A DNA stretch of 64,000 nt from a virus. Taxonomy: Duplodnaviria; Caudoviricetes. Location: IMG/VR virus record IMGVR_UViG_3300025389_000011; one strand, given 5' to 3'. Under the pieces are notes generated by a model that was not told where the DNA came from, made no database searches, and worked only from the letters and a program-made list of their open reading frames with translations. This document shows, in pieces, positions 7,246 to 42,478 of the stretch. Made by a program: the position numbers and the translations under genes. Each line of letters opens with the position of its first letter. Position 1 is the first letter of the stretch.

Positions 7246-7647
7246 GTGGCAAGTAGTACAAAAAACTTTATAGTCAAGAATGGTCTTACCACTGGTAATA
7301 TTATTCTTAGCGCATTGGACGGCAGTATAACTGCCAATTCTGCCAACATAAGTGGCGACATTGTTACCGGCGGCAACGCTAATATATCAGGTAACGCTAC
7401 AATTTCCGGAATAACAAATGTAGGTCCAATCAGTAATTTATATGCTACTGGCGGTTCTGCAGGACAATATATTACAACTGACGGTAACGGAAATCTTTCT
7501 TTTGCATCAGTTGTTTCATTTATGCCAGCATATATTTTTGCAGGCACAACATTGTTTGTGCCACAGTATTACCAAGCATTATCAGGACTTTCTACATTAA
7601 CAGTAGATGGAAATTTGAGCGTAGACGGTGTTTATGTTGAAGCGTAA
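7246..7647 (+). CDS. Small virion structural protein
   Basis: Likely GTG start at 7246. The N-terminus KNFIVKNGLTTGNI parallels gene 3608, and the C-terminal MPAYI..TVDGNLSVDG parallels a module in gene 1898. Confidence 0.7.
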   Translation: MASSTKNFIVKNGLTTGNIILSALDGSITANSANISGDIVTGGNANISGNATISGITNVGPISNLYATGGSAGQYITTDGNGNLSFASVVSFMPAYIFAGTTLFVPQYYQALSGLSTLTVDGNLSVDGVYVEA

Positions 7648-7705
7648 ATAAACTTCAAAAAGCAAAAAATGATAAATAAAGAATAGACTACTATAGGATA
7701 CAAAC

Positions 7706-39080: not shown

Positions 39081-39249
39081 AACAATTCTAATTGAACAAA
39101 TTCATTTGCTAGTTCACTTGTTAGAATAGGATCAAGAACAAATTCTTTACTGTTTGTATAAGATGCACGTGCCTTATACTTTTCATCAGAAAAGTGTTTA
39201 TACAATAACATAAATTCTGTATATTCATTAGAGTTCATAATGTATTTAT

Positions 39250-39327
39250 GCCCCCGTGGACAAATTGGCAAAGTCGTTTCTCTCAAAAGGAAAAATTTTC
39301 TCCGTTCAACTCGGAGCGGGGGTACCA
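39250..39327 (+). tRNA. tRNA-Leu(CAA) with an unusually short variable region
   Basis: GCCCCCG/CGGGGGT acceptor, loop CT-CAA-AA, variable segment AATTTT only. Confidence 0.85.
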
Positions 39328-39563
39328 GTATTTCAACATCCGACCTAACGCTGGCAACAGAGGAAGTTCGGGACTTGTGGCAAGTGCGAGTGGGAGAAAT
39401 TTACTTTGTTATTTGTCTGAAATTTACTTTGTTATTTCGTTAAACCACCGTGATATAACAAGCAACACAAACAGAATCAGGTAACACTTGCACTATTGGT
39501 TCGGGTTGTGGCAAAGATTAATGTTAGGATAGAACAGAATCCCGGCTACGGGGTGTTGAATAT
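39328..39563 (+). ncRNA. rnpB: Minimal RNase P RNA (catalytic domain retained, specificity domain replaced)
   Basis: CR-I GAGGAAGTTCGGGAC (39360-74) pairs with CR-V ACAGAATCCCGGCTA (39534-48) to form P4 with a bulged U. P1, P2, P3, P5, P6, P7, P15 and P16 all pair. J5/15 CAA, AGATTAA (CR-IV-like) and L15 GGT are present. Confidence 0.9.
39396..39437 (+). repeat. 19-nt direct repeat GAAATTTACTTTGTTATTT x2 inside the RNase P RNA
   Basis: Identical copies at 39396-39414 and 39419-39437. Confidence 0.95.
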
Positions 39564-39564
39564 T

Positions 39565-39656
39565 GCCAGCGAGACTTGGAAGTCAGAGAGGTCTTATAAG
39601 CCTTTTAGCGCCAGATTAGCGTTCTTGAGTGGGTTCGATTCCCACCGCTGGTACCA
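39565..39656 (+). tRNA. Non-canonical tRNA, anticodon TAT (Ile?), long variable arm
   Basis: 7-bp acceptor, TTCGATT T-loop, CCA; 4-nt D-loop, extended anticodon stem, 5-bp variable stem. Confidence 0.65.
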
Positions 39657-39661
39657 GTTAT

Positions 39662-39737
39662 GGTGATTGTAGCTCAATGGTAGAGTCCAGGATTGTGATT
39701 CCTGTTGTTGTGGGTTCGAATCCCATCAGTCACCCCA
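39662..39737 (+). tRNA. tRNA-His(GTG) with encoded G-1
   Basis: Cloverleaf with extra G-1:C73 pair, CCA. Confidence 0.95.
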
Positions 39738-41917: not shown

Positions 41918-42478
41918 ATGTCTGTGTTAACTTTAGATATATCTGGTATACCAAGACAATGGATTTCAAATGATGAAGCTATTACATATCACGCAAAAAA
42001 TGCGGTGGCTTGGGCACTAGGAGAAGTAATTGCAAAATATCGTGGTGGAACACAACGTGACGGTCAAACAAGTTATTTAGAAACAACAAGTATTATTGCT
42101 GTTAAAGGACACGGATTTAATCCATACAAACATGCAAATGTTGCACTAAGTAACAAAACATTATTTGGTCGGGATAGGTACGTGTGTGCATATTGCGGGG
42201 GACACTTCCCGAATTATCATCACCTTAGCAGGGACCATATTGTCCCTAAATTTTTGGGTGGTGAAAACACATGGATGAATGTTGTTACTGCATGTAAAGA
42301 ATGTAACAGCAAAAAAAGCCATAAAACATTGAAACAAGCACGTATGGAATTACTATATGTGCCATATGTTCCAAATCACTACGAAAACATGATTCTACAA
42401 AACCGCACAATACTTGCGGATCAAATGGAGTACCTATTAGCAGGTGTTCCAAAACACAGTAGAATTCTCCTAAATTAG
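41918..42478 (+). CDS. HNH endonuclease (McrA-like)
   Basis: LFGRDRYVCAYCG, SRDHIVP...GG..W.NVVTACKECNSKK. Confidence 0.9.
   Translation: MSVLTLDISGIPRQWISNDEAITYHAKNAVAWALGEVIAKYRGGTQRDGQTSYLETTSIIAVKGHGFNPYKHANVALSNKTLFGRDRYVCAYCGGHFPNYHHLSRDHIVPKFLGGENTWMNVVTACKECNSKKSHKTLKQARMELLYVPYVPNHYENMILQNRTILADQMEYLLAGVPKHSRILLN

Follow-up and report, generated by a model that had tools for sequence, protein, structure and literature searches.

A miniaturised RNase P RNA of bacterial type encoded within a phage tRNA array

We describe here a small RNA gene on the (+) strand of phage DNA, at positions 39332-39560 of a 64-kb stretch analysed as a whole (hereafter, the window), which most probably specifies a phage-borne, miniaturised bacterial-type RNase P RNA operating as a working tRNA 5'-processing ribozyme with the RnpA protein of the host; we assign this reading a probability of about 0.78. 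The gene lies within the 237 bases that separate tRNA-Leu(CAA) from a 92-nt tRNA(UAU), and its predicted fold is that of a C-domain alone, that is, P1-P7, P15 and P16, with P4 and P6 as pseudoknots. Helices were placed by exact string search of the window, and this recovered in place every helix and motif listed in the original prediction, as follows:

39250-39327 (+): tRNA-Leu(CAA), called by ARAGORN, ending in CCA 4 nt before P1
39332-39560 (+): mini RNase P RNA gene, 229 nt, from P1 5' end to P1 3' end (RF00373, 35.4 bits; model R1, see below, 264 bits)
39332-39341 / 39551-39560 (+): P1, 10 bp including one G.U; 10/10 pairs compensatory (35 sequences)
39344-39350 / 39522-39528 (+): P2, 99.2% paired; 6/7 pairs compensatory (35 sequences)
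39351-39360 (+): P3 hairpin CUG-GCAA-CAG; 3/3 pairs compensatory (35 sequences)
39360-39374 (+): CR-I GAGGAAGUUCGGGAC, containing the P4 5' strand with bulged U39367
39365-39373 / 39540-39547 (+): P4, 8 bp, U39367 bulged, one U.G
39374-39378 / 39458-39462 (+): P5; 4/5 pairs compensatory (35 sequences)
39380-39386 / 39485-39491 (+): P6 pseudoknot, 7 perfect bp, 3' strand in the P16 loop
39387-39393 / 39445-39450 (+): P7, A39389 bulged; placed by string search and the 35-sequence alignment
39394-39444 (+): 51-nt insert replacing the S-domain, mostly two U-rich 18-nt repeats
39397-39414 and 39420-39437 (+): two exact 18-nt copies of AAAUUUACUUUGUUAUUU, U-rich, inside the P7-loop insert
39463-39465 (+): J5/15 CAA, invariant in alignment A1
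39466-39469 / 39507-39510 (+): P15; 4/4 pairs compensatory (35 sequences)
39474-39480 / 39496-39502 (+): P16; 7/7 pairs compensatory (35 sequences)
39503-39506 (+): GGGU on the 3' side of the P15/P16 internal loop, with the L15-type GGU at 39504-39506; GGGUUG invariant in alignment A1
39515-39523 (+): CR-IV AGAUUAAUG, just before the P2 3' strand; aligns to the AGucGAAUG consensus (cmscan)
39534-39549 (+): CR-V ACAGAAUCCCGGCUAC, containing the P4 3' strand (39540-39547)
39565-39656 (+): tRNA(UAU), 92 nt, called by ARAGORN, starting 4 nt after P1
39663-39737: tRNA-His, a member of the phage tRNA array

CR-IV of this RNA is of the AGNNNAAUG type, as expected for the catalytic domain of an RNase P RNA. 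ACAGAA at 39534-39539 precedes the P4 3' strand and matches the consensus capitals in the cmscan alignment, and the CAA of J5/15 occupies what we take, by homology, to be the position of E. coli A248/A249. The loss of P8-P14 and P18 had been correctly predicted, and P17 is gone as well, so that P17, P18 and the S-domain (P8-P14, CR-II/CR-III) are all absent from the window RNA. Indeed, the spacer from P15 to CR-IV is reduced to GCAA (39511-39514), unlike in the relatives L102, L081 and L008, which retain an insert at this place. The MFE fold (z-score −1.45) recovers P1 and part of the remainder only, an undistinctive outcome explained by P4 and P6 being pseudoknots. A protein-coding reading was also considered, and the ORFs over the region (39240-39443, 39248-39484 and 39496-39666) were taken as spurious because they overlap tRNA genes. 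Counted against a working ribozyme are the P3 helix of just 3 bp and the missing L8, L9, L14 and L18 tertiary contacts, which stabilise bacterial RNase P RNAs.

By cmscan with E-value reporting, positions 39332-39560 aligned end-to-end to RF00373 (RNaseP_arch, model 1-288) with 35.4 bits and an E value of 1.3e-8; in this alignment, the model positions of the S-domain were skipped, and CR-I, CR-IV and CR-V matched at their conserved capitals. Gathering scores are 84 bits for RF00373 and 100 bits for RF00010, and at Rfam gathering thresholds the window yielded tRNAs only and no RNase P match. RF00010 with standard filters detected no mini form in five viral records, among them the near-identical L079 record, and mini forms go unannotated because this model, so run, misses them.

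Homologs were collected from viral contigs. An exact search of IMG/VR with the CR-I 15-mer returned at least 118 loci, in at least 29 of which ACAGAAnCCCGGCT follows 125-364 nt downstream of CR-I, and a second search pattern brought additional loci. Among the matches listed, ~45 relatives in IMG/VR viral contigs retained the fold, and compensatory changes were abundant in them. Eleven mini forms were aligned with MAFFT without structural input and scored for the nine helices originally predicted: 97.1% of the cells were paired, versus 30-41% when partners were slid, and 28/57 pairs had changed on both sides, values reached by 0/500 shuffles. A covariance model built from this 11-sequence alignment (R1) gave 58 matches in 131 viral loci, again among the matches listed. 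In 35 of these matches, the nested helices were 96.1% paired and 37/42 pairs were compensatory, figures that lean towards the structure since this alignment was fitted to R1. The counts for P4 and P6 are free of that bias because neither helix is part of the structure of R1. P4 was 98.9% paired across 34 sequences with two compensatory pairs, the double changes being G-C to A-U in L124 and G-C to C-G in L119/L120/L125. P6 was 94.6% paired, versus 29-49% in slid controls, and compensatory at 7/7 pairs, and relatives present it in six or more different complementary versions; slid controls for P4 and P6 together spanned 21-49%. Covariation of P4 and P6, the absence of which had been named beforehand as grounds for abandoning the RNase P reading, is thus present, and compensatory changes were found in every helix. 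These covariation data show that the predicted fold of the RNase P active-site core is conserved across the relatives.

Full-size viral RNAs further illuminate the family assignment. Five of them (~300-380 nt), all in tRNA arrays, pass RF00010 gathering with 158-189 bits; L072, L029, L013 and L085, with GAGGAAGTTCGGGAC...ACAGAATCCCGGCTA in common, are among these. They carry the same unusual CR-I/CR-V variant as the window RNA, and R1, built from mini forms, also matches them. Since these full-size relatives both pass RF00010 and are matched by R1, we place the window RNA, on sequence grounds, in a viral branch of the bacterial class A RNase P RNAs, as a reduced form. Taken with the RF00373 match, this supports the identity originally proposed, and the window RNA is almost certainly homologous to RNase P RNA. 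The archaeal model being the best Rfam match probably reflects its tolerance of a missing S-domain, not archaeal descent. The combined CR-IV and CR-V viral signature had six matches among 185,579 prokaryote species genomes (one genome per species); two of the six are RNase P-like, both being tRNA-array contigs in MAGs, and the remaining four are devoid of RNase P or tRNA signal. This near absence from prokaryote genomes indicates that the CR-I/CR-V variant is, as far as its distribution in sequence data tells, essentially viral.

With class A RNase P RNA, as represented by E. coli M1 RNA (rnpB, RF00010), the window RNA shares the P1-P7 plus P15-P16 core, the P4 helix with its bulged U, the P6 pseudoknot, CR-I, CR-IV, CR-V, the CAA of J5/15 and the GGU on the 3' side of the P15/16 loop. 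It differs in length (229 nt versus ~350-400 nt) and in lacking the S-domain (P8-P14, CR-II/III), P17 and P18; unlike in class A, its P6 comprises 7 bp formed directly with the P16 loop. CR-I is one A shorter (GAGGAAGUUCGGGAC) and CR-V one U longer (ACAGAAUCCCGG), which results in a U.G and an extra A-U pair in P4. Finally, the window RNA is virus-encoded, resides inside a tRNA operon and scores below RF00010 gathering.

Several individual relatives deserve separate mention. The copy at L122:13432-13575 (−) spans 144 nt and comprises the 3' part only (P15/P16, CR-IV, CR-V and the P1 3' strand), with CR-I missing; it is probably truncated or decayed. The published 642-kb genome of an uncultured phage, LR756502.1, contains an unannotated 205-nt RNase P-like RNA at ~614.6-614.8 kb (L138:2963-3167, +; RF00373, 32.4 bits, E 1.4e-6); unlike other relatives, it has no detected tRNA in the 3 kb flanking each side. 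A contig with tRNA genes binned to a Flavobacteriales MAG (L137) carries a 202-nt mini RNase P RNA at 87-288 and, ~130 nt downstream of it, a c-di-GMP-I-GGC riboswitch aptamer at 417-497 (+; 64.5 bits, gathering 59); a weak tmRNA-like match lies between the two, at 293-366.

ARAGORN called 30 tRNA genes in the window, of which 30/30 encode NCCA and 27/30 have U at −1. In all 45 relatives examined, the tRNAs within 5 kb lie without exception on the strand of the RNase P RNA; a co-oriented tRNA ends no more than 8 nt upstream of the model start in 26/45 and another starts no more than 5 nt downstream in 21/45, the spacing to the flanking tRNAs often being 4 nt. Both tRNAs that flank the ribozyme in the window look non-canonical in sequence. 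They were called by ARAGORN and fell below Rfam tRNA gathering in the whole-window scan; the 92-nt UAU tRNA scored 34 bits on the tRNA-Sec model. An HNH endonuclease gene (41918-42478, +; HNH_5, E 1.3e-16) is also found inside the tRNA array; its homologues recur in 6/32 loci bearing an RNase P RNA, and it is similar to homing endonucleases in the tRNA clusters of other phages.

The window further encodes phage proteins, namely RNR subunits, head-decoration and head-like proteins and HNH endonucleases. The near-identical IMG/VR contig (L079 record), 40 kb long, has a completeness rating of 12%, which suggests a phage genome of ~300 kb. Relatives among cultured phages were sought at several levels: blastn of the 237-nt region against 50,697 GenBank phage records gave no match, megablast of the 6 kb around the RNA returned tRNA fragments only, and tblastn with a head-like protein revealed no cultured-phage relative. 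The RNR large subunit is less than 60% identical to its counterparts in Xanthomonas, Ralstonia and Stenotrophomonas phages, a result that does not point to a particular host.

We propose that transcription of the phage tRNA operon would include the mini RNA; a promoter-like site at 39197-39225, retrieved by a sigma-70 consensus scan, offers weak evidence for co-transcription. Judging from the conserved arrangement, its 5' side would be freed by the 3' processing of tRNA-Leu(CAA), and its 3' end would be made by RNase P cleavage at the 5' end of tRNA(UAU): with the RNA ending 4 nt before this tRNA, that very cut would release it. The mini RNA would then fold into the RNase P active-site core, assemble with host RnpA and, by homology, remove the 5' leaders from the phage's own pre-tRNAs without elbow recognition. 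Lacking an S-domain, it could not read the T/D-loop elbow, and binding would consequently rest on GGU/3'-CCA pairing, on the J5/15 adenosines at N(−1) and on the protein cofactor. In E. coli RNase P, the type A active site reads the 3'-CCA through L15 and N(−1) through J5/15, and the type A enzyme prefers CCA and U(−1). Here, the L15-type GGU would pair with the 3'-CCA encoded by all 30 phage tRNA genes, and the J5/15 adenosines would contact N(−1), a U in all but three of them. The likely benefit for the phage is a processing capacity sufficient for its 30-tRNA array and independent of host rnpB expression; the mini RNA may also tolerate non-canonical phage tRNAs.

As to the protein partner, no PF00825 (RnpA) match was found among the 68 window ORFs of 85-200 aa or in 10 viral records bearing an RNase P RNA, among which are two complete genomes, of 364 kb and 332 kb, and the same search was positive in 10 control bacteria. 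The earlier statement that the window has no rnpA consequently holds and extends to these related records, and since such phages show no rnpA, the cofactor is most likely host RnpA. A conserved neighbour was also sought as an alternative cofactor, and no protein cluster occurred in more than 7/32 of the loci with an RNase P RNA. Two neighbours recur, an HNH endonuclease and a DUF2828/DUF7788 protein; the latter, a 509-aa product at L065:7333-8859 (+), is the commonest neighbour, yet present in only 7/32 loci.

The slot of the S-domain, in the P7 loop, proved variable in content. AAATTTACTTTSKTATT appears twice in each of eight related RNase P RNAs and nowhere else in the 138 loci, which argues for a conserved module; the core of the repeat, AAAUUUACUUU, does not vary in either copy across eight loci and is confined to RNase P RNAs. 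TRF did not report the two-copy repeat. Several roles were tried for it and rejected: as an antisense guide it had no target in the 64-kb window at up to three mismatches, its best duplex (−14.1 kcal/mol) was surpassed by shuffled values reaching −15.9, and the sigma-70 consensus scan did not pick it up as a promoter. Elsewhere, the P7 loop holds a GAAA-capped stub in L065, L086, L124 and L131 (RNAs of 203-205 nt) and, in other relatives, UUCG or another short hairpin, or else 130-180 nt on a 12-bp stalk.

Some of these stalks carry recognisable domains. In L044 (7449-7750, −), the 12-bp stalk of the P7 loop is tipped by tRNA sequence at 7589-7668 (−), with 42.8 bits against a gathering of 29, which ARAGORN did not call; by its sequence this looks like a tRNA gene nested inside an RNase P RNA gene and, if excised, would leave the ribozyme in two pieces. 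The stalks of L020:336-686, L123:334-686, L127:5480-5831 and L121:3973-4283 bear a tRNA-like or tmRNA-like domain of the form GGGGCAU...GGGUUCGAAUCCC...CCACCA; a weak tmRNA match from Rfam (16.5 bits, E 0.008) falls inside L127, whose record represents a complete phage genome of 364 kb. A phage RNase P lineage in which the P7 loop is an exchangeable module that sets substrate choice or regulation is an idea that we regard as rather unlikely; within it, such a module would, for example, dock a phage factor or mimic the tRNA elbow. If true, this would amount to a naturally re-programmable RNase P, by which the phage could mature its own tRNAs, some of them non-canonical, without relying on the host enzyme.

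Rather than cleaving pre-tRNAs, the RNA might cut nothing and act as a decoy that keeps the RnpA-binding face of the C-domain and sequesters host RnpA, or some other factor that binds RNase P, with the purpose of depressing host tRNA maturation or regulating processing. We find this quite unlikely, given that the bulged U of P4, the L15-type GGU and the J5/15 CAA, substrate-contacting and catalytic elements superfluous to a protein sponge, are invariant or covarying, that titration of RnpA would starve the phage's own 30 tRNAs too, and that all phage tRNAs have CCA and nearly all have U(−1), as the type A enzyme prefers. The points that a decoy would accommodate are the missing S-domain, P17 and P18, the failure to find a phage RnpA in the window and 10 related viral records, and the example of the camelpox RNase P-like RNA, an inactive molecule for which a decoy role has been discussed (PMC3001073). 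It is very unlikely, in turn, that we are dealing with an active ribozyme of altered targeting, the P7-loop module (here the duplicated U-rich 18-mer) docking a phage protein or pairing with RNA as a specificity device for special substrates or non-tRNA RNAs. A search of the 64-kb window allowing up to three mismatches gave no complementary target, no duplex beats the shuffled controls, no protein family co-occurs in more than 7/32 loci, and close relatives do with a bare tetraloop stub, so that the module is dispensable for the core function. What this explanation has in its favour is the use of the P7 loop as a swap site for GAAA stubs, UUCG and other hairpins, the tandem repeat and the 12-bp stem with its tRNA or tRNA-like domain, together with the invariance of AAAUUUACUUU in both copies in eight loci, inside RNase P RNAs only.

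Exceedingly improbable, finally, is a decaying relic of a captured rnpB, or a chance resemblance, devoid of present function. The sub-gathering Rfam score, the MFE z-score of merely −1.45 and the 5'-truncated copy in L122 could be read in that way; against it stand the compensatory changes that every helix shows in dozens of diverged phage contigs, the constant position and orientation in tRNA arrays and the Rfam E value of 1.3e-8. We retain a working ribozyme that uses host RnpA as the preferred reading.

Natural and engineered RNAs offer points of comparison. The type T RNase P RNA of Pyrobaculum and relatives, reportedly described by Lai et al. in PNAS in 2010, is a natural RNA of ~200 nt that has lost nearly its whole S-domain, and it shows such a loss to be tolerated in nature. 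The window RNA has likewise lost the S-domain and kept the C-domain, a likeness of architecture only: type T is archaeal and cellular and works with archaeal protein subunits, whereas the window RNA has a bacterial L15-type GGU, class A relatives and a place in a phage tRNA array. We take the likeness for convergent reduction and do not count the window RNA as a member of type T. The tRNA cluster of phage T4 encodes small stable RNAs (species 1 and 2). HDV-like theta ribozymes adjoin phage tRNAs (PMC10879173). These are also structured non-tRNA RNAs or ribozymes within phage tRNA units that are released by tRNA processing, with unrelated folds, and none is an RNase P RNA. In the study on the Eco CP RNase P RNA (PMC5839562), removal of the S-domain leaves the type A C-domain catalytically active at reduced efficiency; such engineered 'mini/micro' P RNAs, a C-domain alone that still cleaves pre-tRNA, are laboratory deletions, whereas the window RNA is a natural gene under selection that has also dispensed with P17/P18.

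The camelpox RNase P-like RNA is the sole viral precedent found, and it counts against activity, as it displayed no pre-tRNA processing in vitro (PMC3001073). It is also virus-encoded and resembles bacterial/archaeal RNase P RNAs, a likeness drawn here by description, not sequence; unlike the window RNA, it belongs to a eukaryotic poxvirus and has no tRNA-array context (PMC3001073). The original prediction knew of no characterised phage RNase P RNA of this architecture, and in agreement with this we found none in the full-text literature, subscription journals lying outside the scope of the search. The window RNA represents, in sum, a known ribozyme in a form that is new both structurally and biologically.

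Among ribozymes, RNase P RNA belongs to the few that are universal, and its gene is viewed as cellular and organellar. A virus-specific lineage would extend, by a ribozyme, the set of translation-related functions brought by large phages. It also exposes an annotation blind spot, since RF00010 and gathering thresholds miss the mini genes. Viral RNase P RNAs range in size from full-size class A down to C-domain-only forms of ~190-230 nt, and dozens of them show, in nature, to what size a bacterial-type RNase P RNA can shrink while selection still maintains it; they also offer compact natural scaffolds for structural work and RNase P-based tools. With them, the contribution of the S-domain in vivo, a long-standing question, becomes directly testable.
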